Notes: generated by a model from the letters alone, not told the origin. Positions 3,968-63,501 are shown, numbered from the stretch's first letter. The stretch: 64,000 nt of DNA from Patescibacteria group bacterium (GCA_041674765.1 JBAYVE010000003.1:66040-130039), one strand, 5' to 3'. Numbers and translations: made by a program.

Positions 3968-4330
3968 TTAGGATCGGCCAAATCCGCAGGGATTCGCGCT
4001 GAATTCCCTATAGATTTTGATGGCAGTCTGTATCGACGGACTAATCTGGGTAATCGTAACCAACTGATCAGTACCAGTCACTTCGATCTTTGATTTTCCA
4101 GAGTGCCGGAATCCAAGCGGACATGGCGTAAATGGATACTGCGCGCTGACAAAGCGCACAACGTTGTTGGGAATCATCCCTAACACAGGATCGAGCCACG
4201 AACCAACAGGGATGAAATCCATCCCCGCGTCTTTGTCATGATTAGTGGTCACATTGCCAATCATGCCATCCATGGCAAGCTGAGAGAGGACTGTCATCCA
4301 TCCGGGGTAAAGATAAATACGGATCGTCAT
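3968..4330 (-). CDS. Hypothetical protein; start set at the internal Met that follows a GGAAAGGGGAA ribosome-binding site.
   Basis: The ORF is in the six-frame track. The better start is MTIRIY at 4330. No recognisable motif. Confidence 0.45.
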   Translation of the reverse strand: MTIRIYLYPGWMTVLSQLAMDGMIGNVTTNHDKDAGMDFIPVGSWLDPVLGMIPNNVVRFVSAQYPFTPCPLGFRHSGKSKIEVTGTDQLVTITQISPSIQTAIKIYREFSANPCGFGRS

Positions 4331-4483
4331 GGTATTCCCCTTTCCGTTCAAGGCTCATGCAAATAATCAAGTATTTGTCAGGCCTTTGATACGGTGAGAT
4401 AGATATATCATAACATCAGTTATAACCTTTGTCAATAATTTTTATGCTTAAGGTGTCATCTTAAGCTCTTTGAGCTTTCCTGA

Positions 4484-4517
4484 GGTTGATATAAAAAATC
4501 ACTCTCGATTCGAGGGT
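4484..4517 (-). terminator. Intrinsic terminator after rplO (ATCACTCTCG..CGAGGGTGAT followed by a T-run).
   Basis: Stem-loop plus TTTTTT on both strands immediately downstream of the rplO stop. Confidence 0.7.
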
Positions 4518-4582
4518 GATTTTTTATAAAGAGATTCTTTGCTTACGCTCAGAATTACAGTTCTATGTAGATAAACAATATT

Positions 4583-5116
4583 TTATTCAGCTTTTTTCTT
4601 TGGAGCAGATTTCTTGGCTACGGTCTTCTTCTCGACTAGTTTCTCGGCTACTACTGCCTCTTCGGTTTTTACTTCAGCGGGTTTATTTTCAGCTTTTGGC
4701 TTTTCGCTTTTGACTTCAGTGAATAGCGCCCTGACGGGGCCTGAGACTCTAACCCCAACACCCAATTCAACTTTTACAGTCAAGGTGCCGTTGCTTAAGA
4801 TCTTCGGAGTCTGACGTCGTGTAACCAATCCTTTTTCTACTAAAGTTGTCTTGGAAACCGTATCTCCGTCCTTGAAAGCTTGAGATATTTGGTCCAGAGA
4901 AACTACTTCATTCTTCGCCTTATGAGATTTGAAGCCAGGAAGTTTTGGTAATCTCATCGAAAGAGGAGTCTGACCACCTTCAAAACGGTTTGGCAAGTTG
5001 TAGCCACTGCGGGATTTTTGACCCTTAGTACCACGTCCGGCCGTTTTGCCACCGCCAGCAGAGATACCCCTGCCGATGCGTTTTCTATTTTTTGTTTGTA
5101 CTGATTCTAATTTCAT
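4583..5116 (-). CDS. rplO: 50S ribosomal protein L15 with a K/A/E-rich C-terminal tail.
   Basis: RIGRGISAGGGKTAGRGTKGQKSR motif, in the canonical position. 177 aa against roughly 145 typical. Confidence 0.92.
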   Translation of the reverse strand: MKLESVQTKNRKRIGRGISAGGGKTAGRGTKGQKSRSGYNLPNRFEGGQTPLSMRLPKLPGFKSHKAKNEVVSLDQISQAFKDGDTVSKTTLVEKGLVTRRQTPKILSNGTLTVKVELGVGVRVSGPVRALFTEVKSEKPKAENKPAEVKTEEAVVAEKLVEKKTVAKKSAPKKKAE

Positions 5117-5197: not shown

Positions 5198-5875
5198 CTA
5201 TTTTTTCTTTGCTGCCTTCTTCACGGCTGCTTTACTCTTTACCGCCTTGATTTCTTCTTTTGTCTCTACTGCCGGAGCTTCCTCAACCGGAGCTTCTGTA
5301 ACTTTCACCGCAGTTTTTTTGTCAGCATATTTTTGAACGGTCTTTGTATATTCAGGATTGAATGAGGATAAGGCTTTTAAAGTAGCAAGTACATTGTTTA
5401 CTTTGTTGGCACTACCTAGCATCTTTGAAAGTAGGTCGGAAATCCCTGCAAGGTCAGCAACAGCACGAACACTTCCACCGGCAACGATTGAAGTACCGGA
5501 TGCTGCAGGTCTAAGCATTACGACAGCCGAACCATATTTGGCAGTAATTTCATAAGGAATGGTACCATCAATAATTGGTATAACCACAAGACTTCTCTTT
5601 GCCCGAGTTACAGCTTTTTTTACTGCTTCAGAAACATCATTCGCTTTTGCTACGCCCATTCCCACTTTACCTTTGCGGTTTCCAATTACAACAAGCGCGC
5701 GGAAACGGATACGTCTTCCACCTTTTACAGTTCTGGCAACCCGACGAACTTCGATGACGCGTTCTTCAAACTCCGACAGCTCTCTTCGATCCCCATCAAA
5801 ACGCTTTGGACGCATAAAGTTTTTACTTGGTCGCTCTGTTGATTCTGTTGTTGTTGCTTGTTTTTGGATAGCCAT
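5198..5875 (-). CDS. rpsE: 30S ribosomal protein S5 with N- and C-terminal extensions.
   Basis: GGRRIRFRALVVIGNRKGKVGMGVAKANDV core in a 225-aa protein. Confidence 0.92.
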   Translation of the reverse strand: MAIQKQATTTESTERPSKNFMRPKRFDGDRRELSEFEERVIEVRRVARTVKGGRRIRFRALVVIGNRKGKVGMGVAKANDVSEAVKKAVTRAKRSLVVIPIIDGTIPYEITAKYGSAVVMLRPAASGTSIVAGGSVRAVADLAGISDLLSKMLGSANKVNNVLATLKALSSFNPEYTKTVQKYADKKTAVKVTEAPVEEAPAVETKEEIKAVKSKAAVKKAAKKK

Positions 5876-7193: not shown

Positions 7194-7228
7194 TTTTTTC
7201 CTCTATTTTGTAATATTCCGAAAAACTT

Positions 7229-7414
7229 TTACCAACTTGATTTAACAACTCCTGGAATTTCTCCCTTGGAAGCAAGCTCCCGGAAGCAAATTCTGCAGAG
7301 TGCAAACTTTCTAATATAAGCATGTTTGCGGCCGCAGCTTTTGCATCGGTTGATTGTTCTTGTTGAATATTTTGGCGTTTTCAGCGCCTTTAATATCATT
7401 GATTTTTTTGCCAT
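7229..7414 (-). CDS. rpsZ: 30S ribosomal protein S14 type Z (zinc-binding).
   Basis: 61 aa with CKSCGRK...CRIC, between rplE and rpsH. Confidence 0.9.
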
Positions 7415-7423
7415 TTTTGCTCC

Positions 7424-7966
7424 TTATTCCTTTGCAAACGGAAAACCTAGCTTATGAAGTAACACCCTGGCCTCGTCTTTGCTCTTTGCCGTAGTCTTTA
7501 TATTTATCTGTAAGCCGAAATTAACGGATATCTCTTCGTATTTAACTTCCGGAAAGATAGAATAATCTCTGATACCGACAGAGTAATTGCCCTGATCGTC
7601 AAAAGCTTTTGTCGACAGACCTCTGAAGTCACGGACCCGAGGCAAGGCAACATTTACAAGCTTCTCGATAAAGTCGTACATTCTGACATTTCGAAGAGTA
7701 ACTGTAACTCCAACTGGCTGGCCAATTCTGAGTTTAAAGGCAGAGACTGCTTTTCTGGCGTGATTGATTTTCGGTTTCTGACCGGCAATTCTGGAAATTT
7801 CCCCAGAAATTTTTTCAACGGCATTTTTGTCTTCCTTAAAATCACCAATTCCTGAAGAAATAACTATTTTGGTAATTCTCGGTACATCCAAATCATTCTT
7901 TTTCGAAAGTTCTTTTTTGAGCTCCGGCAAAATAACTTTGTTGAATTTTTCAGCTAATTTTTCCAT
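7424..7966 (-). CDS. rplE: 50S ribosomal protein L5.
   Basis: 180 aa in the canonical position after rplX. Confidence 0.9.
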   Translation of the reverse strand: MEKLAEKFNKVILPELKKELSKKNDLDVPRITKIVISSGIGDFKEDKNAVEKISGEISRIAGQKPKINHARKAVSAFKLRIGQPVGVTVTLRNVRMYDFIEKLVNVALPRVRDFRGLSTKAFDDQGNYSVGIRDYSIFPEVKYEEISVNFGLQINIKTTAKSKDEARVLLHKLGFPFAKE

Positions 7967-8286
7967 TATTTATTTCCACCTTCTAAACTTTGACCGCATT
8001 TTTTGCAAATTCGAAGTTTGCCTTTTTCGGTCAGTTTATATCCAATCTTTGTTAACTTGCCACAATTGGCGCAAACAATCATCATCTTCGAAACATCAAC
8101 TTTCTGATTGATTTCGATTATTCCGCCCTGTGGGTTTTTCTTTGACGGCTTAACATGTTTTTTTGCCAATGCGATACCTTTGACAACGACCTTTCCTTCG
8201 GTCGGAAAGACACGTTCAATAACTCCGGACTTTCCCTTGTCCTTGCCTGCTATGATTGCTACGTTGTCATTTTTCTTTAATTTCAT
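7966..8286 (-). CDS. rplX: 50S ribosomal protein L24 with a C-terminal Cys4 (CANCGK...CKKCG) module.
   Basis: KOW motif IIAGKDKGKSG and the canonical position. Four Cys replace the usual non-Cys C-terminus. Confidence 0.9.
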   Translation of the reverse strand: MKLKKNDNVAIIAGKDKGKSGVIERVFPTEGKVVVKGIALAKKHVKPSKKNPQGGIIEINQKVDVSKMMIVCANCGKLTKIGYKLTEKGKLRICKKCGQSLEGGNK

Positions 8287-8329
8287 GATATTGTTTGCTT
8301 TATAAACTTTATAAACTTTTAACTTTGAT

Positions 8330-50331: not shown

Positions 50332-50373
50332 AAAAAAAAGACCCGCGACTACTCATGTGAGTAGAAGCGGGCC
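50332..50373 (-). terminator. Terminator for the minus-strand HD gene (CCCGCGACTACTCA..TGAGTAGAAGCGGG after an A-run).
   Basis: Read from the sequence. Confidence 0.65.
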
Positions 50374-51074
50374 TAGCACTTTCCGGCCGCTGTGAGTTCG
50401 GCGAGCCGGAGATGAGCCCGATAAAGGATCTCATCGAAAATTTCATTGTACTTGGCAAGCAAGCACTTGGGGATAAACATTCGGCACTCGATAGCCATCC
50501 GGTAGAAATCCCCACCTTCGATAGTTTCTCGGAGCATCCGCAATTCTGCTTTTTCTGAGCCTCCGTGAGGACGGCGCAGATTGTGCAGCCGATCCAGTAG
50601 TTTGGCAAATGGTATCTGCCACATTTGCCTGAAGAAAAGCAGGAAATGCCTTTTCGACGCAGCCTCGATAATCTGATCGAAGTAGTGTCTTAAGTACAAA
50701 TCCCTTTCTTCGTCTGAGTTGAATTTTCCATGCTCCTCTTTGGTCAATGCCTTCACGCCGAAGGTGACAAGCGGGCCAAAGATGGGGCCGAATGACCTAG
50801 ACAGTTCACGTGCCTTTATCTTGCCATCCTCAAAAACATCATGAAGAACGCAGATCAACACTAGAAGAAAATTGTAGAAAAACTCCTTTGACATGTCAGA
50901 TACTGCCAAGAGATGTTCTACTTGAGGATGTCCAGACCGGTCAACTTTTCCTTTGAGCTGTGAGGTTGTGATATGAACAGCTAAGTGCTCCAATCCCAGA
51001 AAAAGCCAATTTGTTCCATGGAGATGCCGCTCCATGTATCTATCGGCGTTTACACCTAGGGGTACATGAATCAT
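50373..51074 (-). CDS. Small alarmone hydrolase (RelA/SpoT-type HD-domain (p)ppGpp pyrophosphohydrolase, Mesh1-like).
   Basis: HD-domain His...HD pattern (HLLAVSDM ... LHDVFED) and an LDRLHNLRR motif, 233 aa; GC-rich. Confidence 0.7.
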   Translation of the reverse strand: MIHVPLGVNADRYMERHLHGTNWLFLGLEHLAVHITTSQLKGKVDRSGHPQVEHLLAVSDMSKEFFYNFLLVLICVLHDVFEDGKIKARELSRSFGPIFGPLVTFGVKALTKEEHGKFNSDEERDLYLRHYFDQIIEAASKRHFLLFFRQMWQIPFAKLLDRLHNLRRPHGGSEKAELRMLRETIEGGDFYRMAIECRMFIPKCLLAKYNEIFDEILYRAHLRLAELTAAGKC

Positions 51075-51795: not shown

Positions 51796-52608
51796 ATGCC
51801 AAAGCCAGATAAAGATGTCTTTCGGTTAGCGCATCATTCTCGCAATTTGGGCCTTCTGACCGAAGACAACCAAGACAAGATCAGCAATACCACATTGTTG
51901 ATTGCTGGCTGTGGTGTCGGTTCTCAAGTTGCTCTCTCGGCTGTCCGCATGGGATTTGAGAAATTTATCATTGTTGATGGCGACACAGTCGAGCTTTCAA
52001 ACAACAATCGGCAAGGTTACAGTTGGCGCGATGTCGGACGGACTAAAGTCGATGCACTAGCCAAAAAAATAAAATCCATAAATCCTCACGCTCATATTCG
52101 AAAATATCCTATTTTTATTGATGCCAAAAATGCTGAACGGATTTCCAAAAAGGCCGATATTATCATAGACACTATTGATCCAGATGCTGTGATTGCAGTT
52201 GTGGCGCTTCATCGATCTGCACAGAAGCACAAACAAACTATAATACAACCAACTGATGTTGGATGGGGCGCAATGGTTCAAATTTTCACTCCAGATTCTA
52301 TTTCATATGAAGAAATGATTGGGATGAATCCAAAGACTAGAATCGATAGAATTGATGAGAAAGAAGGCTTTGCTAAGTTTGTTGAATTTTTTATGAAATT
52401 GATGCCTACTTATGTACAGGAGTTAGCTCTTGATGTCGCCGAAGGCAGACGAGATCATTACCCTCAACCAGTCTCAGCTTCATATATACTTTCTGCCATG
52501 GCTATAATTGCAGCAAAACGTATAGCTTTGGGATTACCTATTAGAATCGCGCCGGAAGTGATCGACTTTGATCCCAATCTAATGTTTACGCCAGATGAAG
52601 AAAAATAA
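51796..52608 (+). CDS. ThiF/MoeB/MccB-type E1-like adenylyltransferase.
   Basis: LLIAGCGVGSQVALSAVRMGFEKFIIVDGDTVELSNNNRQ, a Rossmann GxGxxG plus the NRQ motif, 270 aa. Confidence 0.8.
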   Translation: MPKPDKDVFRLAHHSRNLGLLTEDNQDKISNTTLLIAGCGVGSQVALSAVRMGFEKFIIVDGDTVELSNNNRQGYSWRDVGRTKVDALAKKIKSINPHAHIRKYPIFIDAKNAERISKKADIIIDTIDPDAVIAVVALHRSAQKHKQTIIQPTDVGWGAMVQIFTPDSISYEEMIGMNPKTRIDRIDEKEGFAKFVEFFMKLMPTYVQELALDVAEGRRDHYPQPVSASYILSAMAIIAAKRIALGLPIRIAPEVIDFDPNLMFTPDEEK

Positions 52609-53923
52609 TCTGATATTAGTATTGATCGCACTCTCAGTAGCTGACTTTCTTGGTGCAGTTGATTCAACAAGTGTGAATATTGCACTCCCAAAAATTACTG
52701 AAACTCTACATACTTCAGTAATCGTCTCTCAGTGGATTCCGAATGCATTTACCCTGACACTGGTGGCATTCCTAATACTAGCTGGCAAAATCGGCGATAA
52801 AATAGGAGCCAAAAAACTATATCTATCAGGATTATTATTATTTGGGTTGGCTTCTCTAATTCTTGGATTTACAAATATTACTTGGCTTTTGATCGGATTT
52901 AGAGCAATTCAAGGAATAGCTACGGCAATCCTTTATACAATGCCCATGATTATCATCGCACACCATTGGAAAGATAGAGAAAAAGCTTTTGCTGTTACTG
53001 CTGCCACTTTTGCTGGCGGAATGCTGGTGGGACCAGTGCTTGGTGGAATTCTCACAAATTTAAATCTTGGCAATTTTTTCAGTTGGCATTTGATCTTTCT
53101 AATTAATATCCCATTTGTCATATTTGGTCTAATTATTGCCAACAAATACATTCCTGAGACACCAGCAAAGTCATCTATGAAACTCGATTATTGGAGCGCA
53201 CTCATACTCGCATTTTCATTAGTCATACTTGTTCTTGCCTTCTCAATCATCAGCAGGTATTTTATCATATTGGGATTTCTTCTACTGGTCCTACTTTATT
53301 TCTATCAGAAGAAAACAGAAAACCACCTCCTCGATTTTACGCTTTTTCAAAATCAAACTTTTGCCGCAGCTAATGTTTTAAGTTTTATTTCCATGGTATC
53401 GGTAATTGGCATGTCTTTTGTTCTGACTTTTTATCTCCAAGACACCTTACATTGGAACCCAATGCAATCCGGATTCGCATTGCTCCCAGTGCCAATCATT
53501 ACTGGAGTATTCTCTGGAATCGGTGGTCAAATCAAAAACTGGAAATTAGCAGGGTTTTTGTCTAGTATTTTTATTTTCCTTGGCATCGTATATTTGACTC
53601 AAATAAAACCAGAATCTTCATACGTTATATCTATATTGCCAGGCCTCGCATTGGTATCGGCCGGAGCCGGATTTTTGATGACAACAATCTTTGCAGCTAT
53701 ACTTGGATCGGCTCCAACTGAGAATTCGGGTAGCGCTTCTGGTATACTAAATACATTACAACAAATGGGTTCTTTAATTGGAATTGCCCTAATATCAAGC
53801 ATGGTATTACAATACAAATTATCCTTTACAATACTATCTATATGTAGTATAATAGGTATATTATCGGCATTTTTTATAAAAAATAACAGCTCTTCAAAGA
53901 GCGGAAAGTTAGGATATAGGTAG
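52595..53923 (+). CDS. MFS transporter (drug or metabolite efflux type).
   Basis: 442 aa with 12-14 predicted transmembrane helices; overlaps the end of the E1 gene. Confidence 0.8.
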   Translation: MKKNNLILVLIALSVADFLGAVDSTSVNIALPKITETLHTSVIVSQWIPNAFTLTLVAFLILAGKIGDKIGAKKLYLSGLLLFGLASLILGFTNITWLLIGFRAIQGIATAILYTMPMIIIAHHWKDREKAFAVTAATFAGGMLVGPVLGGILTNLNLGNFFSWHLIFLINIPFVIFGLIIANKYIPETPAKSSMKLDYWSALILAFSLVILVLAFSIISRYFIILGFLLLVLLYFYQKKTENHLLDFTLFQNQTFAAANVLSFISMVSVIGMSFVLTFYLQDTLHWNPMQSGFALLPVPIITGVFSGIGGQIKNWKLAGFLSSIFIFLGIVYLTQIKPESSYVISILPGLALVSAGAGFLMTTIFAAILGSAPTENSGSASGILNTLQQMGSLIGIALISSMVLQYKLSFTILSICSIIGILSAFFIKNNSSSKSGKLGYR

Positions 53924-53928
53924 GTAAA

Positions 53929-55470
53929 ATGAAAGAAAAAAAAGCTCCAGACATTAAAGAGATCATGGCTGATTATGATAAAGCTGTTGAATTTTTAGCT
54001 AATACCCCGGCTGAAGTATGGGAAAATATCGGTACTAAGACTGCACTGTCTGTTTTTGAAGATACTACTGAGAACATACCTGCATATAAGAGGTTTCTTC
54101 AAAATGAAAAATTCGATCCTAAGCAAATTAAAACAATGGATAGTTTTTTTGAAATTCCAGTTAGCGATAAATATAATTATGTTCAACCTTTTGGGTTCAA
54201 TGAGATAAACTCGGTGCAAGCAGGCAAGAACTTGTATAGTTTTTCTTTGAGCTCGGGTACCGCTGACGATCCGACGATATGGCCACGATATATACAATAC
54301 GAGGATTTTTTACCTTCAGTCTTCGATGTATTTATGCGCCAATATTGGAATATAGATAAAAAATCGAGCCTTGTACTTAATGCTTTTGCTATGGGCCCCT
54401 GGATTGCCGGATTCTGTGTCCATCAAGCTCTGCGGCCTTTGACACAGAAATATAAATTGACTATGGGCACCACAGGTGCTGACATTGAGAGTATAATTTA
54501 TGCAATTTCAAAAATATCTCAGTACTACGACCAGACAATCATTATGTCATATCCAACCTTTGCTAGAACAATTTTAGACCGTTTGGAACAAACAGGAATT
54601 AATATTAAGAAATTGAACCTGAAAATGTTTATTGCCGGGGAAGGGCATACTGTCGAATGGCGACAATACATTAATAAAATGACTTCTGGTAACAAAAATG
54701 ACTTAATATCCATCATTGATGGATATGGTGTTACAGATACAGGGCTAGCGGGACAAGGATCAGCGTTAACAAACCTGATACGAGATCTCGCATTCAAGGA
54801 TGAAAAACTATCGAAGAGCTTGTTTGGGGAAGCTAATTCTGTCCCTTCTCTCTTCCAATATAATCCCGGTAATTATTTTATCGAAGAATATAATGGAGAA
54901 ATATTATTTACGACAAAAGCTACTACTCCGCTAATAAGATATAATATTCACGATAGAGGTGGAATTATTAAATTTCGAGAAATGGAAAGTATCCTTGCAA
55001 ACCATGGCTATGATTATAAGAGACTGATCAAAAAGGCTGGGCTTCCACTAAGTATTATCAGTCAGCAACCATTTGTTTATTGCTTTGGTCGTCGAGATGA
55101 CACCATTATTATTGGCGGAGCAAATATTTTTCCAGAACAAATTGCTCCTGCATTATTTAATGAAAAGGTTAAGGATATTCATAGTTTTAAATTGACAACA
55201 AAATTTGACAAGAAACAACATCAACTTTCATATGCTATTCTTGAATTAAAATCGGGGATCACTTACAAAAAAAATCAATTAGTAAGGCTAAAAAATAAAT
55301 ATCATAATACTATTCTTAATAGACTGCTGAAGACTAGCAGTGATTATGCTGTTTCTTACAAGGCAGATCCTAAATATGCAGATATAATTATAGAGATTTT
55401 CGAGAATGGGCAGGGACCATTTGCCAGCGATAGCAGTCGAACCAAACCTAGACTTATTCTAAAAAAATAG
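53929..55470 (+). CDS. Adenylate-forming enzyme of the GH3/PaaK/F390-synthetase superfamily.
   Basis: SSGTADDPT, a variant of SSGTTGKPT, and a YGVTDTG-like motif, 513 aa. Confidence 0.6.
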   Translation: MKEKKAPDIKEIMADYDKAVEFLANTPAEVWENIGTKTALSVFEDTTENIPAYKRFLQNEKFDPKQIKTMDSFFEIPVSDKYNYVQPFGFNEINSVQAGKNLYSFSLSSGTADDPTIWPRYIQYEDFLPSVFDVFMRQYWNIDKKSSLVLNAFAMGPWIAGFCVHQALRPLTQKYKLTMGTTGADIESIIYAISKISQYYDQTIIMSYPTFARTILDRLEQTGINIKKLNLKMFIAGEGHTVEWRQYINKMTSGNKNDLISIIDGYGVTDTGLAGQGSALTNLIRDLAFKDEKLSKSLFGEANSVPSLFQYNPGNYFIEEYNGEILFTTKATTPLIRYNIHDRGGIIKFREMESILANHGYDYKRLIKKAGLPLSIISQQPFVYCFGRRDDTIIIGGANIFPEQIAPALFNEKVKDIHSFKLTTKFDKKQHQLSYAILELKSGITYKKNQLVRLKNKYHNTILNRLLKTSSDYAVSYKADPKYADIIIEIFENGQGPFASDSSRTKPRLILKK

Positions 55471-55491
55471 CAAGAAATAGGAGGGACAACG

Positions 55492-57144
55492 ATGCATGAT
55501 TATGATTTAATTTTAGGACCACTAATATCTTTGTCGTGCGTTGCCATAGGCCTTGTAATGCTTTTTAACGGTGGTCACCATTCAGAAACAAAAGTGGCTT
55601 CTATTCTCTCCATCTCGATTGGCATTTGGATAATCAGTGCATTTTTTTCAGATTTACCCTCGCTAGCGAACTATTCACTGTTCTTAAATCGATTGGTATT
55701 CTGCGCTCTTGTTATAATCATGAGCTCGTTATTATATTTGCCGTATATTTTTCCTAGACAAACTAAACCAGCAAAGTACATAAAATGGCCTCTAATAATA
55801 TTTAGTATGATTTTTAGTATTTATGCGATTGTCACTACAGGAATTGTGGAACATATAGAATTTATGAGTTGGGGTACTAATTTAGTTTATGGAAAATTTT
55901 TCCCTATTTTTTATTATTATGCAATGACAGCAATTACATTCTCTTTGGGAATGTTTATCTACCACTACATTAAATTAGACAAAAAAGAACGATTAAAAAT
56001 TATCTATTTTCTAGAAGGTCTTTTCATCTTTATGATAATTACGGTTCTAATCCATACAGTTATAAGGTCTCTAGCGGGCAGCGATGAATATTACCGCTTT
56101 GGTAATTATTCAGCTATTGTATTTGTGTATTTCACCGCCTACGCAATCGCAAAGCACCATTTGTTTAACATCAGAATATTCCTTACAGAAATTGCCTTCT
56201 CTTTAATTATGTCTGCCATAGTTGTGCAAGCAGGTTTATCGCGAGGAATCTTTGATCTGAGTGTGAACATAGTAATACTATTTATAACTTCTTACGGCGG
56301 TTATTTGTTACTAAAATCTATTCGGACGGAAATTAAACAGAAGGAAGATCTTGCTATCCTTGCACAGGAACTCAAAGAAGCCAATGAACACTTGAAAGAA
56401 GTTGATAAATTGAAAGACGACTTCTTGTCCATGGCTTCGCATGAATTGAATACCCCTATCGCCGCTATCGAGGGATATTTATCGATGATTTTGGAAGAGG
56501 GCATGGGAGGAAAGATACCAGAAAAAGCGCGTGGATATCTAGATAGCGTTTTTGTATCATCAAAAAGGCTCGCTAGCATGGTCAAGGATCTTCTGAATGT
56601 GTCCAGAATCGAATCCGGTCGTATTCATATCATCTGGGAACAAAAGCCTGTCGAGGACATTGTAAATCAAGCCATCACTGAGGTCATGTCAAAAGCGAGG
56701 GAAGCAAAACACTCTCTTACTTTTGAAGAGCCGAAACACAAAATGCCTGCTACGTGGTTCGACATAACCAGAATTACCGAGGTTGTGATAAATATTCTTG
56801 GCAATGCTATCAAATACACTGACCCTGGTGGAAAAATTGTTGCCCGAGTCACAAATGATGAGCACAAGATTGTTGTTTCTGTAGAAGATAATGGCAAGGG
56901 TATCCCGAAGGAACGCCAACAAGCGGTTTTCGAGAAATTCACTCAAGTTGATGTGATGAAAGATGAAGTCAAAGGTACAGGGCTTGGAATGTATATTTCG
57001 AAGAGATTCATAGAGCTAATGGGAGGTAAAATCTGGTTTACTTCCGAGGGAGCCGGCAAAGGCACAACTTTCTATTTTTCTCTGCCTATTATAAAAGAAA
57101 AACCCTCCGACCCGCATGAAGGCGAAGGTTTAGTCCTAAAATAA
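55492..57144 (+). CDS. Sensor histidine kinase with seven N-terminal transmembrane helices, HisKA and HATPase_c; no adjacent response regulator.
   Basis: H-box SMASHELNTPIAAIEGY, N-box NAIKYT, G-boxes DNGKGIP and GTGLGM. Confidence 0.88.
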   Translation: MHDYDLILGPLISLSCVAIGLVMLFNGGHHSETKVASILSISIGIWIISAFFSDLPSLANYSLFLNRLVFCALVIIMSSLLYLPYIFPRQTKPAKYIKWPLIIFSMIFSIYAIVTTGIVEHIEFMSWGTNLVYGKFFPIFYYYAMTAITFSLGMFIYHYIKLDKKERLKIIYFLEGLFIFMIITVLIHTVIRSLAGSDEYYRFGNYSAIVFVYFTAYAIAKHHLFNIRIFLTEIAFSLIMSAIVVQAGLSRGIFDLSVNIVILFITSYGGYLLLKSIRTEIKQKEDLAILAQELKEANEHLKEVDKLKDDFLSMASHELNTPIAAIEGYLSMILEEGMGGKIPEKARGYLDSVFVSSKRLASMVKDLLNVSRIESGRIHIIWEQKPVEDIVNQAITEVMSKAREAKHSLTFEEPKHKMPATWFDITRITEVVINILGNAIKYTDPGGKIVARVTNDEHKIVVSVEDNGKGIPKERQQAVFEKFTQVDVMKDEVKGTGLGMYISKRFIELMGGKIWFTSEGAGKGTTFYFSLPIIKEKPSDPHEGEGLVLK

Positions 57145-57237: not shown

Positions 57238-58623
57238 TCAAATCTTCGATAATGTGAAGCCGGACCTCATGTCCTTGACCTGATATCCCTTCTCCTTGAT
57301 CGTGTGCCGCAGTACATCAGCACGCGCCCAGTCCTTGGCTTGTCTGGCGGTCTCACGCTGATTTGCCAGCTCAATTACTTCCGCCGGTACCTCGTCCTCA
57401 TCTGCGAGCAAATCGAGCCCCAGCACTTCGTCATAGCGAGAAAACAAGGCAATCTTCGTCGCATTGCTCATCGATGAATCCACAGTCTCCTGCAAAAGCG
57501 CCGTGACCATCGGTGTGTTCAAGTCGTCGCTGATGTACCCGAGGAACGACTTCTCATACCGGTCAAAGGCAGCTTGGTTCAACGGCCCGTTATCAGATGA
57601 CTTGATCATAGCGATCTTTTCGCGGAGTCGCAGACGAGTGTTCCGAGCGGTCGTCATCGCGTTGTCCGAGAAGACGACTGGGTTGCGGTAAACAGAGCCA
57701 AGCAACATAAATCGGTAATCCATCGGCTCATATCCTGCTTCAACAAGGGACTTTATCGTCAGCAGATTACCTTCCGATTTACCCATCTTGGCGTTCTCGC
57801 CCAGAACGAGAAATGCATTGTGCATCCAGTAATTGACCCACTTGTGGCCAAAGGCTGCTTCGCTTTGAGCAATCTCGTTGGTGTGATGAACGGGGATGTG
57901 ATCAATACCACCAGTGTGAATATCGAAGTGCTCGCCCAGATACTTTGATGACATCGCTGAGCATTCGATATGCCAGCCCGGGAATCCACGACCCCATGGT
58001 GAATCCCACTCCATCGCGTGATTGGTGTACTTGTGTCGGGTAAACCACAGAACAAAATCGAAAGGTGACCGCTTGTTCGGATCGACCTCAACCCGGCTTT
58101 GGATCGCCTCAGGACTCAGGTTGAGGCGCGCCATCTTCCCATAATCAGGAAATGCCGAGGTGTCAAAATAGACGTTGCCTCCAGCCGTGTAAGTAAACCC
58201 ACGGCTCTCGAGCTGTACGATCATTTGGATCATTTCGGAGATGTGCTCAGTCGCCTTGCAGACGACATCGGGAGTGATAATATGAAGAGTTTCAGCATCG
58301 TGGAAGAAGGCGTCGGTGTAATATTGGGCAATTTCCCATACCGATTTACCTTCGCGACGCGCTCCTTTCTCCATCTTCTCTTCTCCTTTTTCCGAATCAT
58401 CCGCCAAATGACCCACATCGGTCAGATTCATGACGTGGCGCACTTCATAGCCGAGGGTTTGGAGAGTTCTCTTCAAGACATCCACAAATACATATGCCCG
58501 CAGATTTCCGATATGGGCATAGTCATAGACCGTGGGTCCACAGGAATACAGTCCGACAAAACTCTCGGTGATAGGGACAAAGGGCTCTTTCCCGTGTGTC
58601 AGAGTATTGGTAATATACAGCAT
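57238..58623 (-). CDS. cysS: Cysteinyl-tRNA synthetase. The start is taken at MLYITNT behind a GAAGGAGAAG ribosome-binding site; the track ORF extends 26 codons upstream. GC-rich.
   Basis: CGPTVYDYAHIGN (HIGH), KMGKSEGN (KMSKS), Zn-binding Cys and His. Confidence 0.9.
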   Translation of the reverse strand: MLYITNTLTHGKEPFVPITESFVGLYSCGPTVYDYAHIGNLRAYVFVDVLKRTLQTLGYEVRHVMNLTDVGHLADDSEKGEEKMEKGARREGKSVWEIAQYYTDAFFHDAETLHIITPDVVCKATEHISEMIQMIVQLESRGFTYTAGGNVYFDTSAFPDYGKMARLNLSPEAIQSRVEVDPNKRSPFDFVLWFTRHKYTNHAMEWDSPWGRGFPGWHIECSAMSSKYLGEHFDIHTGGIDHIPVHHTNEIAQSEAAFGHKWVNYWMHNAFLVLGENAKMGKSEGNLLTIKSLVEAGYEPMDYRFMLLGSVYRNPVVFSDNAMTTARNTRLRLREKIAMIKSSDNGPLNQAAFDRYEKSFLGYISDDLNTPMVTALLQETVDSSMSNATKIALFSRYDEVLGLDLLADEDEVPAEVIELANQRETARQAKDWARADVLRHTIKEKGYQVKDMRSGFTLSKI

Positions 58624-58890: not shown

Positions 58891-59790
58891 ATGAAAAATA
58901 ATGTTTATGACAATGTTCTCGGGTTGATCGGAAATACACCGTTGGTAAAAGTAACTAAGTTTAACACGAACAAGAACGTCAGGATATATGCAAAACTCGA
59001 AGGGCAAAATCCTGGAGGATCGATCAAGGACCGCATCGGTCTTAAGATGATTGAGGATGCTGAGAAAAATGGCGAATTAACAAAAGATAAAATTATCATC
59101 GAGCCTACCTCCGGGAACACAGGCATCGGTTTGGCTATGGTAGCAGCAGTTAAAGGTTATAAAATTCAGATAACAATGAGTGCAGCAATGAGTGATGAAA
59201 GAAAGAAAGCTCTTCGAGCATTCGGAGCGGAACTTATCGAAACCGATCCGACTAAAGGAACCGATGGTGCAATCGTCAAAGCGCATGAATTGTTGGATAA
59301 AAATCCGAATACTTATTGGATGCCAAACCAATTCGAGAATGATAGCAATCCGCTAGCGCATTACGTCGGAACAGCAGAAGAAATAATCTCTCAAATGCCA
59401 AAAATAACTCATTTCATCGCTGGAATGGGCACTTCCGGCACATTGATGGGCGTATCAAAACGACTCAAAGAATATAATAGCAAAATAGAGATAATAGGCG
59501 TAGAACCGATTCTCGGACACAAGGTTGCAGGCCTGAAAAATATGCAAGAAGCAATTCAGCCAAAAATTTATAATGAGGCAGAGCTAAGTAGAAAAATTAA
59601 TGTAAATGATGAAAATGCTTATGAGACTTCTCGACAGCTCGCGCTGAAAGAAGGCATATTTGTGGGAATGAGCAGCGGGGCAGCCATGTTCGCCGCTCTG
59701 GAATTGGCGAACTCCCTTGAGAAAGGCAATATCGTCGTAATCCTACCCGATCGAGGCGATAGATACACAAGCACTAACTTATTTGGCTAG
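58891..59790 (+). CDS. cysK: Cysteine synthase (O-acetylserine sulfhydrylase).
   Basis: KLEGQNPGGSIKDRIG, a PLP-lysine motif, 299 aa. Confidence 0.92.
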   Translation: MKNNVYDNVLGLIGNTPLVKVTKFNTNKNVRIYAKLEGQNPGGSIKDRIGLKMIEDAEKNGELTKDKIIIEPTSGNTGIGLAMVAAVKGYKIQITMSAAMSDERKKALRAFGAELIETDPTKGTDGAIVKAHELLDKNPNTYWMPNQFENDSNPLAHYVGTAEEIISQMPKITHFIAGMGTSGTLMGVSKRLKEYNSKIEIIGVEPILGHKVAGLKNMQEAIQPKIYNEAELSRKINVNDENAYETSRQLALKEGIFVGMSSGAAMFAALELANSLEKGNIVVILPDRGDRYTSTNLFG

Positions 59791-59892: not shown

Positions 59893-61197
59893 ATGTCAGC
59901 CCAGACGCTCCTCCTCAAAGAGGTACTAAGGCGTGATGTACAGCCGGCATTAGGTTGTACCGAGCCTGTAGCAGTAGCACTCGCTTGCAGTGTTGCCGCG
60001 CAGGCTGCCCGTACTAGCGAAGTCATCGCAAAAGGTTCTCCGATTGAACATGTTTCAATCGTCGTTGACCCCGGAGTGATGAAAAACGGCAACGCCGTCG
60101 CCGTCCCGAACAGCTTTGGCAAGAAGGGCAACCTTATTGCTGCGGCGCTTGGCACAGTTTGCACTCACCCCGAACTGGGGCTCGAACTGCTGCAAGGAAC
60201 CGACGCTCAGGCCTTGGCTTCCGCCGAACATTTGCTTCGCAGTAACATGATTTCGCTCGTCTATGATGAAAATCAGACTTCCCTCTACATTCGAGCGACG
60301 GTAACAATCGGAGCCAATACAGCTATCGCCGTCATAAAAGACACCCACACGAACATCGCTTCAATTACCCTGAACGGGGTGCGGCTTGACAGCCAAGTGA
60401 CGGGTCAAACGGCGAGGGAAGAATCAACTCTTGACGGTCGACTTTCGTCATTGAGCATTACCGATCTCGTCCAGATAGCCAACAAAGCCGACAAAGACGA
60501 TATCTGCTACCTCCTTTCCGGTGCTGATATGAATTCAGCTCTTTCCACCGCCGGAATGTCTCTACAAAAGGTAGGACACCATCTCGAGACAATGCTGCTA
60601 AGTCGAACCATCGATGACGGACCGATCAATCGTGCAAAAATCGCCGTTGCGGCAGCTACAGATGCACGGATGGCCGGCATAGCACTTCCAGCCATGAGCA
60701 GTGGCGGCAGCGGAAATCAGGGAATAGTTGCGATTCTCGTCCCTTACCTGATGGGTAAATACTCGAACGTGCCAGACACTCAGATTGGGAAGAGCCTCGC
60801 ACTCTCCCACCTCGTCAACAGTTACGTCAAGTGCTTCACCGGAAAACTCTCCTCTATGTGTGGTTGCGCTGTTGCGGCGGGGGTCGGCGCATCTAGCGCA
60901 ATTGTCCTCCAAGAAAACGGTGACGCGCTAGTGGTCGGCAATGCCATCAACAACGTTCTTGCCAACATCGCCGGTGTCCTATGTGATGGGGCAAAGGGCG
61001 GTTGTGCACTCAAGGTGGCAAGTTCCGCCGAAACGGCGATCATGTCAGCCAATTTGGCACTCGGCGGCTATTCGCTTGGCGGTCCCGAGGGCATCATCGG
61101 CAAAACTGCCGATGAAACGATCGCCAACCTGGGCAAACTCGCTACAAGCTCTGATCCGGTTGTCAATCAGGAAGTCCTCTCCATCCTCGGACGGTAA
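59893..61197 (+). CDS. UPF0597/CyuA-like L-cysteine desulfidase family protein; GC-rich. The start is taken at MSAQT behind an AGGAAAAG ribosome-binding site.
   Basis: Conserved GCTEPVAVALA motif near the N-terminus, about 435 aa, Gly/Ala-rich. Confidence 0.65.
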   Translation: MSAQTLLLKEVLRRDVQPALGCTEPVAVALACSVAAQAARTSEVIAKGSPIEHVSIVVDPGVMKNGNAVAVPNSFGKKGNLIAAALGTVCTHPELGLELLQGTDAQALASAEHLLRSNMISLVYDENQTSLYIRATVTIGANTAIAVIKDTHTNIASITLNGVRLDSQVTGQTAREESTLDGRLSSLSITDLVQIANKADKDDICYLLSGADMNSALSTAGMSLQKVGHHLETMLLSRTIDDGPINRAKIAVAAATDARMAGIALPAMSSGGSGNQGIVAILVPYLMGKYSNVPDTQIGKSLALSHLVNSYVKCFTGKLSSMCGCAVAAGVGASSAIVLQENGDALVVGNAINNVLANIAGVLCDGAKGGCALKVASSAETAIMSANLALGGYSLGGPEGIIGKTADETIANLGKLATSSDPVVNQEVLSILGR

Positions 61198-61224: not shown

Positions 61225-61266
61225 AGACCCACGCTGGTTTCGAACTAGTGTGGGTCTCATTATTTT
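61225..61266 (+). terminator. Terminator AGACCCAC..GTGGGTCT followed by a T-rich run.
   Basis: Read from the sequence. Confidence 0.7.
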
Positions 61267-61287
61267 ATGGTTCAGTTAAATAATAAA

Positions 61288-61316
61288 CGGCGGGTCACAA
61301 TCCATGTGATCCGCCG
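61288..61316 (-). terminator. Terminator CGGCGGGTCACA-ATCCA-TGTGATCCGCCG for the minus-strand gene.
   Basis: Read from the sequence; a T-run follows on the minus strand. Confidence 0.65.
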
Positions 61317-61343: not shown

Positions 61344-61994
61344 TCAACTTATCATACTGCTAAGCTTCTTAATCGCAAGTTGTCCGATCCCACTTTCGAG
61401 GGAGAAATCGGCACAGATTTGGAGCCATTGCTCTTCCGTTAGCTGCATTTTCGCCAGAGAGGTAATCCCAACATCGTACAGATTATTCGTTGAAGTAATG
61501 TCCTTGATGAGAGCTATCCAATCATCAGCTTGCCCAACCTCGACCAGTCTCTCCGACACCTTACTTTTCCCCCGAATATCGCTATCCGGGATTGCTTGGT
61601 AAGCTGTCCGCCATTGCTGAAAAGTGATTGCGGTCGAACACATCTCACTCACAGCCTTGACCTCAAGCTGATTACCACGAGGGCATATGGCGTAGATATG
61701 GTGCCAATGATCGAAGCTAGCGGCTGTTTCGGTCATTTTCTGCAACACCGTTGATTTAAGCGTCTGGTGACTTTGCAAGGTTGCGCAGACTTCCAGCCAC
61801 TGCTCAAACGATGTTGCGCGTGTACAGAGGACCTTTATGACCGCAAGCTTGAGATTGCTACTGCCTCCTTTGGCGACTTCGAGCAACCGCTCGAAAGTAA
61901 ACTGTCCTATGAAATCAGGCGGCAATCTGTGCTGCCAGATTTCAAGTGCCTTAACAAAGCCGACCCGGCTAGCCATTTGATCAAAGGTATACAT
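61344..61994 (-). CDS. Hypothetical protein with internal (S/T)FxQW helical repeats. The start is taken at MYTFDQ behind an AGGAGAA ribosome-binding site.
   Basis: Repeats SFEQWLEVC, SFDHWHHIY, TFQQWRTAY and TEEQWLQIC spaced about 35-45 aa apart. Confidence 0.5.
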   Translation of the reverse strand: MYTFDQMASRVGFVKALEIWQHRLPPDFIGQFTFERLLEVAKGGSSNLKLAVIKVLCTRATSFEQWLEVCATLQSHQTLKSTVLQKMTETAASFDHWHHIYAICPRGNQLEVKAVSEMCSTAITFQQWRTAYQAIPDSDIRGKSKVSERLVEVGQADDWIALIKDITSTNNLYDVGITSLAKMQLTEEQWLQICADFSLESGIGQLAIKKLSSMIS

Positions 61995-62171
61995 CACGAT
62001 TCTCCTAATTGGAACTGGCTTAGTAAAAATTATATCAATATTGAACAAAAAGCAAGGGCTAGGAAAAGCTGAATATCAATTTTGAGTTATTTTCTTGACA
62101 AAAATAACTCCTTCACTTACAATATCACACAACGGTAGCCAAGCTATCGGTGTACAAAGGGGGTGATTCAC

Positions 62172-62204
62172 ATGGTGCTCAAGGGCCACTGTGGCGACGA
62201 CTAA
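62172..62204 (+). CDS. Tiny ORF MVLKGHCGDD (10 aa) behind a strong AAAGGGGGTGA ribosome-binding site.
   Basis: Read from the sequence, 6 nt between the ribosome-binding site and the ATG. Confidence 0.3.
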   Translation: MVLKGHCGDD

Positions 62205-62207
62205 GCC

Positions 62208-62282
62208 ATGCCACTAACCGACGCTATGTCGGATGACACGCGTGCGGGGAAGGGTTTTACCCTGAACCGCACGTATTTTTGA
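62208..62282 (+). CDS. Small ORF MPLTDAMSDDTRAGKGFTLNRTYF (24 aa) whose stop overlaps the radical-SAM gene start (TGATG).
   Basis: Read from the sequence. It is translationally coupled: the TGA at 62280-62282 overlaps the ATG at 62282-62284. Confidence 0.35.
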   Translation: MPLTDAMSDDTRAGKGFTLNRTYF

Positions 62283-63433
62283 TGAGGGGGACAAGAATTT
62301 TGAGAAAACGGTTTCATCTGGAGGTAACAGGCAAATGCAACCTTCGCTGCCGGTATTGTTACAACTCTGCCTTCAGTACTCCTGAACAGCTCGATAATGA
62401 GCTAACTCTCGAAGAACAGCTCATGCTGATCTCTCAGGCATCTACTATGGGTTGTAACAAGTTTATCTGGTCTGGTGGTGAACCTTTCATCTACGACCAT
62501 ATCTTCGACCTGATCGAAGCGTGTCCGAAAACGAGCCACGTCTCTGTGATCACCAATGCATCACATCTCGGCGATAGCATCATCGAGCGGCTCGACAGCA
62601 TTGAACAGTTCAAGGAGTTGAAGATTTCATGGGATGGCTTTAGCGCCCACGACTCAGTTCGACTAGGTAGTTCACACCAGCAAGTTTATGATGCTATCAG
62701 GTCGGCGCGATCACACGCTCCTCGACTCAACATCATCATAAACACGATGATGAGCAAATATAGTGCCGGTGAAATAGGCCGGCTCTATGGTACGCTCAAG
62801 GACCTTGGCGTCCACCATTGGCGCATTGATATGCCGTTCAACTCCGGCCGCTGCACAGAGAATGCCGACATTATGGACATATCCTTTGAGCAAATTGTCC
62901 TGACATATCGTGATCTGCTGACGCAGTACTTCGCGGACGGCAAGCCGATGATTCTGGAGGTGTTCAATGTCTATAAGTCGATGATGGGCACTGATGCCTA
63001 TTACGACTTTGACTCCAACGTACATCCGTGTGCGTACTACGACAATACCATTGTTATGCGGCCGAATGGCGACCTGACCTATTGTCCATCACTCGGTTTC
63101 CCGCTTGCCAACTGGCGAGACGGAAAAGATCTCGCTGAGACAGAGAGACTTGCTAATCTGCATCCTTATCACGACCTTTTGCTGAGCGATATCGGCGCAT
63201 GTCTGAATTGCCGCTATATGAAGCTGTGCGGGGGTGGATGCAGAGCGGATGCAATCACATGGGGCAGTAGACTTACAGGATGCGATCCCTTCAACTGTTC
63301 GATGATGCCATATATCGAGCGACACATCATACCGATTCTGCCGCCGGTAGAGCAAGCAATGTACAGGTACTACATCGATCCGTCGAAAAATAACCCACGC
63401 TCCTACGTCAAGGCCAGTGATATCGACGTCTGA
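62282..63433 (+). CDS. Radical SAM enzyme with a C-terminal SPASM domain.
   Basis: CNLRCRYC (Cx3Cx2C) and a SPASM CLNCRYMKLCGGGC (Cx2Cx5Cx3C), 384 aa; GC-rich. Confidence 0.85.
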   Translation: MRGTRILRKRFHLEVTGKCNLRCRYCYNSAFSTPEQLDNELTLEEQLMLISQASTMGCNKFIWSGGEPFIYDHIFDLIEACPKTSHVSVITNASHLGDSIIERLDSIEQFKELKISWDGFSAHDSVRLGSSHQQVYDAIRSARSHAPRLNIIINTMMSKYSAGEIGRLYGTLKDLGVHHWRIDMPFNSGRCTENADIMDISFEQIVLTYRDLLTQYFADGKPMILEVFNVYKSMMGTDAYYDFDSNVHPCAYYDNTIVMRPNGDLTYCPSLGFPLANWRDGKDLAETERLANLHPYHDLLLSDIGACLNCRYMKLCGGGCRADAITWGSRLTGCDPFNCSMMPYIERHIIPILPPVEQAMYRYYIDPSKNNPRSYVKASDIDV

Positions 63434-63466
63434 CCTTAGATTACACCATTGACCTCGCGCCTAAAT

Positions 63467-63501
63467 CATCCAGGCCGGCATACCAGCCGGCCTGGATTTT
63501 T
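63467..63501 (+). terminator. Strong terminator ATCCAGGCCGGC-ATACCA-GCCGGCCTGGAT followed by TTTTT.
   Basis: 12-bp GC-rich perfect stem plus a T-run. Confidence 0.85.

Follow-up and report, generated by a model that had tools for sequence, protein, structure and literature searches.

The window analysed here, a stretch of 64,000 nucleotides from the metagenome-assembled genome of a Patescibacteria group bacterium (GCA_041674765.1 JBAYVE010000003.1:66040-130039), contains a 10-codon gene for the peptide MVLKGHCGDD and, downstream of it, a gene for a radical S-adenosylmethionine (radical-SAM) enzyme of the SPASM type (Table 1). An earlier reading made from the sequence alone (hereafter the sequence-only reading) had proposed a locus for a peptide that is made by the ribosome and modified after translation (RiPP), with the enzyme as maturase and two short open reading frames (ORFs), of 10 and 24 codons, as candidate precursors. 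When the locus was compared with its homologs, the pairing of precursor peptide and maturase was strongly supported for the 10-codon ORF but not for the 24-codon ORF. The comparison also revealed the main feature of the system, which the earlier reading had overlooked, namely that the peptide co-varies with a neighbouring aminoacyl-tRNA synthetase gene.

The enzyme, which is identical to an NCBI protein annotated as radical SAM, carries the motif CNLRCRYC at residues 13–20 (Cys codons at 62336, 62348, and 62357). Numbered from TTG 62300, its SPASM Cys pattern is C244-x12-G257-x4-C262, C301-xx-C304-x5-C310-x3-C314, and C333, which corresponds to the seven-Cys definition CX9-15GX4C ... CX2CX5CX3C ... 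C. The CxxxCxxC motif and all SPASM Cys residues were invariant in an alignment of 13 homologs, and both motifs named in the sequence-only reading, the second of them in full, were confirmed. Radical_SAM (PF04055, 66 bits against a cut-off of 29.5, which places the protein in the radical SAM superfamily) and Fer4_12 were the only Pfam domains recognised, and the Pfam SPASM model PF13186 did not match the window protein. None of the 80 weak NCBIfam matches of the enzyme reached its curated cut-off, and the same was true of eight subgroup representatives. The best match was TIGR04053 (82.7 bits against 395). The models for the anaerobic sulfatase-maturating enzymes (anSME; TIGR03942, 50.2 against 349.45), MftC (TIGR03962, 51.9 against 265), and PapB (NF047865, 52.8 against 340) scored lower still, the score for PqqE was far below its cut-off, and the protein likewise fell outside the ranthipeptide, SCIFF (TIGR03974), and QhpD families. 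Because no NCBIfam match came near its cut-off, the enzyme belongs to no curated radical-SAM subfamily, an outcome that favours a RiPP locus. As the sequence-only reading had remarked, no sulfatase gene lies close by; no sulfatase-like gene adjoined the enzyme in the window or in the homologous loci L001, L002, and L006, or was present among the recurrent neighbours of its close relatives.

The whole reading frame of the enzyme extends over 62279..63433 (+) and offers earlier starts at TTG 62279 and ATG 62282, the latter being the start used in the sequence-only reading. Both were rejected in favour of TTG 62300, on which three lines of evidence agree: it is the start of the NCBI protein and of the ENA gene call (377 aa); the N-termini of 12 of 12 aligned homologs start within a few residues of (K/R)RFHLE; and the Shine–Dalgarno sequence GAGGGGGA sits 3′ of ATG 62282, its L001 counterpart AAGGGGGA serving an ATG 5 nt further on. 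The translational coupling previously read from an overlapping TGATG is thus an artefact of the wrong start codon. A structural model of the enzyme, built with AlphaFold (AF2) on the 13 homologs, had a predicted local distance difference test score (pLDDT) of 91.7. Its best full-length structural match in Foldseek was anSMEcpe (template-modelling scores 0.70/0.73), followed by SkfB, SuiB, and CteB, and a PDB sequence search returned the same remote set with E values of about 1e-17. Most peptide-modifying SPASM enzymes carry an N-terminal peptide-recognition (RRE) domain. The present enzyme has none, because its CxxxCxxC motif begins already at residue 13. A phage or mobile-virus origin was rejected, since the IMG/VR viral contigs contained no close relatives of the enzyme and yielded two distant matches only (22–25% identity).

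Upstream of the enzyme gene, the 10-codon ORF lies behind a promoter and its own Shine–Dalgarno sequence, as described in the sequence-only reading. In the closest relative, L001, whose enzyme is 63% identical, the ORF differs from that in the window by two synonymous changes and one Gly-to-Ser replacement. Between the window and L002, the codons for the conserved K, G, H, C, and D residues differ synonymously (AAG/AAA, GGC/GGA, CAC/CAT, TGT/TGC, and GAC/GAT), from which selection appears to act on the peptide and not on the RNA. The 5′ stem-loop of the predicted transcript is also kept in L001 by changes on both arms (GGTAGC/GCTATC versus GGTAG/CTACC) and may be a stabilising hairpin of the peptide mRNA. 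The terminator-like hairpin between the peptide and enzyme genes has an equivalent in L001 (-22.3 kcal/mol) and a counterpart of unrelated sequence in L002 (-17.9 kcal/mol), each followed by a U-run.

The 24-codon ORF fared differently from its 10-codon neighbour. According to the sequence-only reading, this ORF, which ends in TYF, could be the precursor, coupled to the enzyme and subject to mycofactocin-like C-terminal Tyr chemistry. The reading frame does exist, and its TGA overlaps the in-frame ATG of the long enzyme frame. However, it is not conserved even in L001, where its ATG lies inside a 5-nt indel and more indels break the frame; it has no counterpart in L002 or L006; and it overlaps the conserved RNA hairpin (62240-62274). 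The enzyme, moreover, starts 18 nt further downstream behind its own Shine–Dalgarno sequence, its MftC score is far too low, and neither an MftB- nor an MftA-like partner was found. The comparison with L001, L002, and L006 refutes this ORF as the precursor, and we regard the idea as scarcely credible.

To define the family of the 10-codon gene, we fetched the loci around homologs of the enzyme from public assemblies (140 loci, 1.19 Mb) and scanned them in six frames for [LIVFM]KGH followed by no more than 10 residues and a stop codon. The scan gave 51 matches, about 45 of which lay directly beside a radical-SAM gene and only about six elsewhere; the 64-kb window contained exactly one. With the core widened to [VAIC][LI]K followed by GH-X.., NKQPS, or CRDGS, a mini-ORF was present 0–200 nt from nearly all of the 93 family enzymes recovered, and it recurred beside about 60 distinct homologous enzymes, with the overall core consensus [VAIC][LI]-K-x-[H/K/R]-X. 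The closer homologs encode MVLKGHCSDD (L001), MCIKGHCTDD (L002), MVIKGHCTDD (L008), and MAIKGHCTDD (L088–L090, from metagenome-assembled genomes (MAGs) of Clostridia), and ..VLKGHCSD is a further form found beside homologous radical-SAM genes; MVLKCRDGS was found in L014, L020, and L095. An SD-like motif, usually AAGGAGG, preceded 46 of the 64 distinct mini-ORFs, those lacking it being mostly archaeal or from very AT-rich genomes. Most of the peptides are 8–13 residues long, and some, mainly archaeal, reach 24–50 residues through Lys-rich extensions. The hosts comprise many lineages of Patescibacteria, Woesearchaeota and other archaeal MAGs, some Clostridia gut MAGs, and Bdellovibrionota, the bulk being Patescibacteria and DPANN archaea.

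The position of the mini-ORF relative to the enzyme gene varied. It is upstream in the window, L001, L002, L019, and L110; 3–110 nt downstream in about 45 loci (including L013, L016, L017, L021, L024, L050, L059, and L061), where MVLKNKQPS in particular lies 3–55 nt past the enzyme stop codon at about 30 loci; and in a convergent or opposite-strand arrangement in L011 and L091. Because its position varies in this way, the mini-ORF is not a cis-acting leader peptide. This bears on the possibility that the ORF is an attenuator, in which its single Cys codon senses charged tRNA-Cys and the hairpin and U-run control read-through into the radical-SAM or synthetase gene. Attenuation by leader peptides is known from amino-acid operons and from pheST, the ORF does contain the cognate codon, and a hairpin of -22.9 kcal/mol with a U-run stands just before the enzyme gene in the window. 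On the other hand, there is one cognate codon and no run of them, synonymous changes in both bacteria and archaea have preserved the non-cognate residues V-L-K-G-H..D of the peptide, and the ORF follows both the synthetase and the enzyme genes in about 45 loci, with variable genes beyond it, or lies on the opposite strand (L011/L091). No alternative anti-terminator pairing was evident in the leader fold, and a permissive search of the 170-nt leader against Rfam 15 gave no match with E < 0.3 and none within 62130-62300 (+), by which a riboswitch or T-box was rejected as well. Gene order largely rules the attenuator out, and we consider it highly improbable.

Several loci depart from the common form of the family. 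Orphan variants were seen in L028 (5525-5560; MVLKSRGWN, followed by ABC-transporter genes), which may mark Trp, Gly, or Asn specificity, and in L058 (6598-6645; MVLKNKEGS), which may mark Glu or Gly specificity, with no matching synthetase in view in either case. In the Falkowbacteria-type loci L054, L055, L056, and L115, the ProRS-linked enzyme has only 259 aa (e.g., L054 5057-5836); it keeps the CxxxCxxC motif and the SPASM half and has lost about 120 barrel residues, and MVLKNKQPS is retained, so these enzymes may be decaying or repurposed. L002 has a second radical-SAM/SPASM gene (7217-8317) right behind the first, as do L011, L032, L088–L093, L096, and L109; the window has none. The second enzyme most resembles QhpD and PapB (about 150 bits, under their cut-offs), both of which form Cys-Asp/Glu thioethers, and in the peptides encoded at these loci, Cys and Asp stand two or three positions apart. 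On this sequence likeness, the second enzyme may form a Cys-Asp thioether bridge in these relatives.

When ORFs around the family enzymes were clustered, the commonest neighbours were aminoacyl-tRNA synthetases: prolyl- (ProRS, 29 loci), cysteinyl- (CysRS, 25), class-IIb aspartyl- or asparaginyl- (AspRS/AsnRS, nine), tryptophanyl- (TrpRS, eight), leucyl- (LeuRS, six), and alanyl-tRNA synthetase (AlaRS, four). Their identities were confirmed with NCBIfam, and the methionyl-tRNA synthetase (MetRS) of L109 was identified in the same way. The type of synthetase corresponded to a residue of the peptide. In the window, Cys7 of MVLKGHCGDD, the third residue past the invariant Lys (K+3), matches CysRS, and KGHC-type peptides occur with a CysRS gene within 5 kb in at least 10 other lineages (L002, L008, L011/L091, L012, L013, L032, L050/L094, L088, L092, L093, and L096). 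KGHW is accompanied by TrpRS (L019 and L025/L097), KGHL by LeuRS (L006, L045, L110, and L114), KGHM by MetRS (L109), KCRD (MVLKCRDGS) by AspRS (L014/L095), and KNKQP (MVLKNKQPS) by ProRS (about 30 loci).

A neighbour-joining tree of the enzymes showed that residue and synthetase switched together and did so independently. The sister loci L032 (AFKGH-C-ADCAYE) and L109 (AFKGH-M-ADCGYS) are linked to CysRS and MetRS, respectively; L006, with Leu and LeuRS, is nested among Cys types, and a separate Woesearchaeota clade also combines Leu with LeuRS. The K+3 residue agreed with the synthetase in 10 of 13 enzyme clades, a level equalled by six of 10^6 label shuffles. When the clades were collapsed to seven states, five agreed, which was reached by 1551 of 10^6 shuffles. 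It is quite likely, in our estimate, that the link between peptide and synthetase is functional.

Some loci bear signs of a cassette that carries its own synthetase. Two full-length cysS genes flank the system in L002, and L042 and L111 each contain two class-IIb synthetase genes. In L025/L097, a truncated TrpRS fragment of 90 aa (5432-5704) lies just upstream of the KGHW peptide gene and is 33% identical to the complete TrpRS after the radical-SAM gene and 42% identical to the TrpRS of L049; as judged from these identities, it may be the native gene displaced by the cassette copy. In L006, the 5′ end of leuS is directly repeated over 397 nt (98.2% identity; 4244-4637 and 7332-7726) on either side of an insert containing a PIN/RHH toxin–antitoxin pair, the KGHL peptide gene, and the radical-SAM gene, as if recombination at leuS had brought in this segment and left a scar.

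Table 1. Genes and signals of the peptide/enzyme locus and its surroundings; positions are counted from the first nucleotide of the window.
Feature	Position	Strand	Details
cysS (cysteinyl-tRNA synthetase)	57238..58623	-	Pfam tRNA-synt_1e; GC3 0.60; 3.6 kb upstream of the peptide/enzyme pair
cysK-like PALP enzyme (cysteine synthase family)	58891..59790	+	Pfam PALP; GC3 0.41; role uncertain
SDH_alpha-family protein (L-cysteine desulfidase/CyuA-like)	59893..61197	+	PF03313, E = 2e-44; GC3 0.57; role uncertain
Terminator-like hairpin	61225-61316
216-aa protein	61344..61994	-	Divergent from the peptide promoter region; GC3 0.52
Sigma-70-type promoter, TTGACA-17 nt-TACAAT	62095..62123	+	11 of 12 consensus positions; both hexamers kept in L001
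5′ stem-loop of the predicted transcript	62129..62153	+	In the minimum-free-energy fold
Shine–Dalgarno sequence AAAGGGGGTGA of the mini-ORF	62156..62166	+	5 nt before the ATG; identical in L001
10-codon gene MVLKGHCGDD*, candidate precursor peptide	62172..62204	+	Conserved beside homologous radical-SAM genes
24-codon ORF MPLTDAMSDDTRAGKGFTLNRTYF	62208..62282	+	Most likely not a gene
Terminator-like hairpin and U-run between peptide and enzyme genes	62240..62280	+	-22.9 kcal/mol, z = -4.76
Shine–Dalgarno sequence GAGGGGGA of the radical-SAM gene	62284-62291	+	8 nt before TTG 62300; conserved
Radical-SAM/SPASM enzyme, 377 aa	62300..63433	+	CxxxCxxC 62336-62359; seven-Cys SPASM region 63029-63298
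Intrinsic terminator closing the operon	63468..63497	+	12-bp stem with 9 GC pairs, then TTTTTATTT; -26.4 kcal/mol, z = -7.9

In the window itself, cysS is the only gene of its kind within the 64 kb, and its GC content at third codon positions (GC3) resembles that of the radical-SAM gene (0.585). Because cysS, the SDH_alpha gene, the 216-aa gene, and the radical-SAM gene share a raised GC3 (0.52–0.60, against 0.29–0.44 in the flanking genes and an intermediate value for the cysK-like gene), they mark an acquired, GC-raised island of 6 kb. The GC-rich character noted in the sequence-only reading was thus borne out and extends to cysS, and terminator-like hairpins do stand on both sides of the locus. 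The 216-aa protein has no Pfam or NCBIfam family, and its only homolog is in L001 at the same position (40% identity). It contains internal F-x-Q-W-type repeats and could serve in regulation or immunity. Just past cysS lies a tightly packed, low-GC operon (51796-57144, +) encoding a ThiF-like adenylyltransferase of 270 aa, a DHA2 MFS efflux pump of 442 aa, a PaaK-like adenylate-forming ligase of 513 aa, and a histidine kinase of 550 aa, with a gap of 720 nt ahead of the ThiF gene. A ThiF and an MFS protein form the enzyme-and-pump pair of microcin-C-type clusters. The ThiF-like gene (51796-52608) is 9.5 kb upstream in this separate operon and is missing from most related loci; ThiF-like genes also adjoin the radical-SAM gene in L053 and L040/L108. 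A gene on the minus strand at 50373-51074 encodes 233 aa that weakly match the hydrolase (HD) region of RelA/SpoT, and its product may be a small alarmone hydrolase. Past the 3′ end of the window, about 2.5 kb downstream of the radical-SAM gene (L143, 13981-15062), four tandem small genes of 57–80 aa with faint matches to KGG/LEA_5 stress proteins are followed by a ferritin/rubrerythrin-like gene.

The genes around the pair raise the possibility that the product is a peptide-derived cofactor, or a molecule for metal binding or redox chemistry like mycofactocin or pyrroloquinoline quinone (PQQ), that serves cysteine or sulfur metabolism or the synthetase, Lys-Gly-His-Cys acting as the ligand for a metal or sulfur. 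The pair is surrounded by cysK-, cysE-, and cysteine-desulfidase-like genes in the window, L001, and L002, the sequence K-G-H-C-x-D offers many metal ligands, and PQQ and mycofactocin are themselves made by SPASM enzymes. The cysteine-metabolism genes, however, are confined to three lineages: the cysK-like gene accompanies the system in the window, L001, and L002–L005 only, and SDH_alpha homologs were found only in L001 (70% identity) and L002 (31%). Moreover, the Cys gives way to Trp, Leu, Met, Asp, or Pro as the neighbouring synthetase changes, a pattern that a common cofactor would leave unexplained, and the MftC and PqqE scores were far below their cut-offs. A cofactor is an improbable product on this evidence.

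Taken together, the conservation of the gene pair, the signals for translation and the coding selection seen in the peptide gene, the variable gene order, and the peptide–synthetase co-variation argue for a minimal new RiPP family whose products act on the synthetase of matching specificity, the linked synthetase being an immune copy; we consider this the reasonably probable explanation. That the peptide is the substrate of the enzyme is, taken by itself, very likely. According to this explanation, transcription from the single promoter (62095-62123) would yield a transcript encoding first the leaderless 10-residue peptide and then the enzyme. Partial terminators that give an excess of peptide are common in RiPP operons, and the hairpin and U-run at 62240-62280 may act as such a leaky terminator and keep the peptide in excess over the enzyme. 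The short peptide would enter the barrel directly, with neither leader nor RRE, as the substrate peptide of anSME does; a 5′-deoxyadenosyl radical would abstract a hydrogen atom from it; and the two SPASM clusters would complete a cross-link or oxidation within the [VI]-L-K-G-H-X-x-D core. By analogy with microcin C and the tiarins, ribosomal peptides with which the system is compared below, the mature peptide may bind or inhibit the cognate type of synthetase, here CysRS, and the linked synthetase, here cysS, would be an insensitive copy that guards the producer. This combination of inhibitor and immunity is speculative, and we judge the chances for and against it to be even.

Several points weigh against this explanation. 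Modification of the peptide, its export, and its binding to a synthetase are steps that we infer. The positional rule is only approximate, because two groups of peptides deviate from it: the ProRS loci have Pro at K+4 and Gln at K+3, and the KGHLGDC peptides of L042 and L111, which lie between AspRS/AsnRS-type genes, match only through Asp at K+5. A strict K+3 code was rejected on these grounds. No synthetase was found within 5–6 kb at the long-flank loci L089/L090, L021, L016, L112, L053, L028, and L113. A mimic of an aminoacyl-adenylate would normally leave the amino group of X free; here the conserved part precedes X, which means either that the warhead logic differs from that of tiarins and microcin C or that processing is needed. 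In the very small genomes of Patescibacteria, the linked synthetase may be the sole copy, in which case an immunity copy would mean a naturally insensitive housekeeping enzyme. Finally, no dedicated accessory gene, whether for an exporter, a protease, an acetyltransferase, or a ThiF protein, was conserved among the family loci, where methyltransferases, ThiF-like genes, ABC transporters, and a second, PapB/QhpD-like radical-SAM gene occurred only sporadically.

The lack of a conserved exporter also fits an alternative in which the peptide is not a secreted antibiotic. The modified peptide could remain inside the producer and modulate its own cognate synthetase for growth arrest or dormancy, or the system could be an addiction or selfish cassette that displaces the native synthetase and whose loss is lethal. 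The peptide–synthetase link is common to this alternative and to the inhibitor-and-immunity explanation. The scars of insertion and displacement, namely the 397-nt leuS repeat next to the PIN/RHH pair in L006 and the truncated trpS in L025, point in its direction, as do the hosts, mostly Patescibacteria and DPANN archaea with tiny genomes in which a second synthetase copy is unexpected. Conversely, ABC exporter genes directly follow the peptide gene in L028 and L052, the DHA2 MFS efflux gene of the window lies 3.3 kb past cysS, and the natural synthetase-targeting peptides known, microcin C and trifolitoxin, are exported Trojan horses. Overall, we hold a self-directed regulator or addiction cassette to be unlikely, and so too the corresponding view that the product is other than a secreted antibiotic.

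In the broadest form of the inhibitor-and-immunity explanation, the system would have evolved independently as a second programmable platform for ribosomally made synthetase inhibitors, its leaderless peptides of 8–13 residues being matured by a single RRE-less radical-SAM/SPASM enzyme, a proposal that we make tentatively and that we rate somewhat below even. The residue past the invariant Lys would then pick one of at least six synthetases (Cys, Trp, Leu, Met, Asp, and Pro), the window encoding a CysRS-directed member, which is possible but a little short of an even chance. It is likewise conceivable, at similarly cautious odds, that the platform is carried mainly by Patescibacteria and DPANN archaea on cassettes with an insensitive synthetase able to displace the native one. 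If this is true, the system would add a class of RiPPs whose precursor genes rank among the shortest known and whose enzyme needs neither leader nor RRE to recognise its substrate, which would be useful for enzymology and peptide engineering. A simple sequence rule would predict the synthetase target, and nature would have re-aimed a second scaffold, after the tiarins, at many synthetases. It would also give one of the few hints at the means by which ultra-small symbiotic bacteria and archaea control neighbours or hosts or compete with them, and genes of 9–13 codons, which gene callers ignore, could be found and assigned through their co-variation with neighbouring genes.

RiPPs made by SPASM enzymes are known already, and several known systems resemble the present one in part. 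Full-text searches of open-access papers and bioRxiv, motif strings included, found no description of the mini-peptide family, and NCBIfam release 20 has no model for the enzyme family. Like the enzyme described here, anSME combines a radical-SAM core with SPASM in about 370 aa, has no RRE, and accepts a short peptide segment directly, but the sequence identity between the two is about 16%, and the partner here is a free-standing mini-peptide. The streptide-type maturases (StrB/SuiB and WgkB) and those of sactipeptides and ranthipeptides (SkfB, CteB, PapB, and QhpD) are also SPASM/twitch radical-SAM enzymes that cross-link short motifs, such as Lys-Trp in streptide, and SkfB, SuiB, and CteB were the next-best structural and sequence matches. 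Unlike the present system, however, they rely on leader peptides and an RRE and have no linkage to synthetase genes, and the window enzyme scored under their NCBIfam cut-offs.

Precursors of similar brevity also have parallels. The precursor gene of microcin C, mccA, has seven codons, and the last residue of the peptide defines the synthetase that is struck (AspRS). In microcin C, however, the ThiF-like adenylyltransferase MccB acts on a C-terminal Asn, and immunity is provided by an acetyltransferase or peptidase, not by a synthetase copy. The window peptide ends in Asp-Asp, and the ThiF-like gene 9.5 kb away is not a conserved partner of the family, which sets the system apart from the microcin C type. 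The biarylitides, which have the smallest precursor peptides reported (PMC12951456), show likewise that a few codons suffice for a functional RiPP precursor. Their cross-link, however, is made by a cytochrome P450, their hosts are unrelated organisms, and they are not linked to synthetases.

The closest parallel is provided by the tiarins, the one recent precedent for synthetase-matching logic. The synthetase encoded in a tiarin cluster corresponds to the peptide residue that precedes a conserved Gln, and trifolitoxin was shown experimentally to be a Trojan-horse inhibitor of ArgRS (bioRxiv 10.64898/2025.12.02.691738). Both systems consist of ribosomal peptides in clusters enriched in aminoacyl-tRNA synthetase genes, with synthetase duplicates in some; in both, a residue beside a conserved motif matches the cluster synthetase; and in both, one scaffold is re-targeted to many synthetases, mostly of class I and some of class II. 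As regards the second, housekeeping copy of the synthetase expected elsewhere in the genome for tiarins, one cysS was found in the 64 kb of genome covered by the window, and duplicates or remnants were present inside the loci L002, L025, L042, and L111. We read these likenesses as shared logic, not as membership. Tiarins are defined by TfxB/TfxC, an FMN (flavin mononucleotide)-dependent dehydrogenase pair with RRE domains, and by the conserved Gln, which becomes a chromophore; their precursors have 23–65 aa and a leader. Here, in contrast, there is a single RRE-less radical-SAM/SPASM enzyme and no TfxB/C-like gene, and most peptides are 8–13 aa long. No TfxB/TfxC-type dehydrogenase was found among the genes at 57.2–63.5 kb of the window, four of which have other Pfam domains and one of which, the 216-aa gene, has none, and the window peptide contains no Gln. 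The conserved L-K-G-H also precedes the specificity residue instead of trailing it, and tiarins are hosted by Actinomycetota and Pseudomonadota, whereas the present system occurs mainly in Patescibacteria and DPANN archaea. Judged by these differences, the system is not a tiarin; it combines a similar genetic logic with unrelated enzymology.

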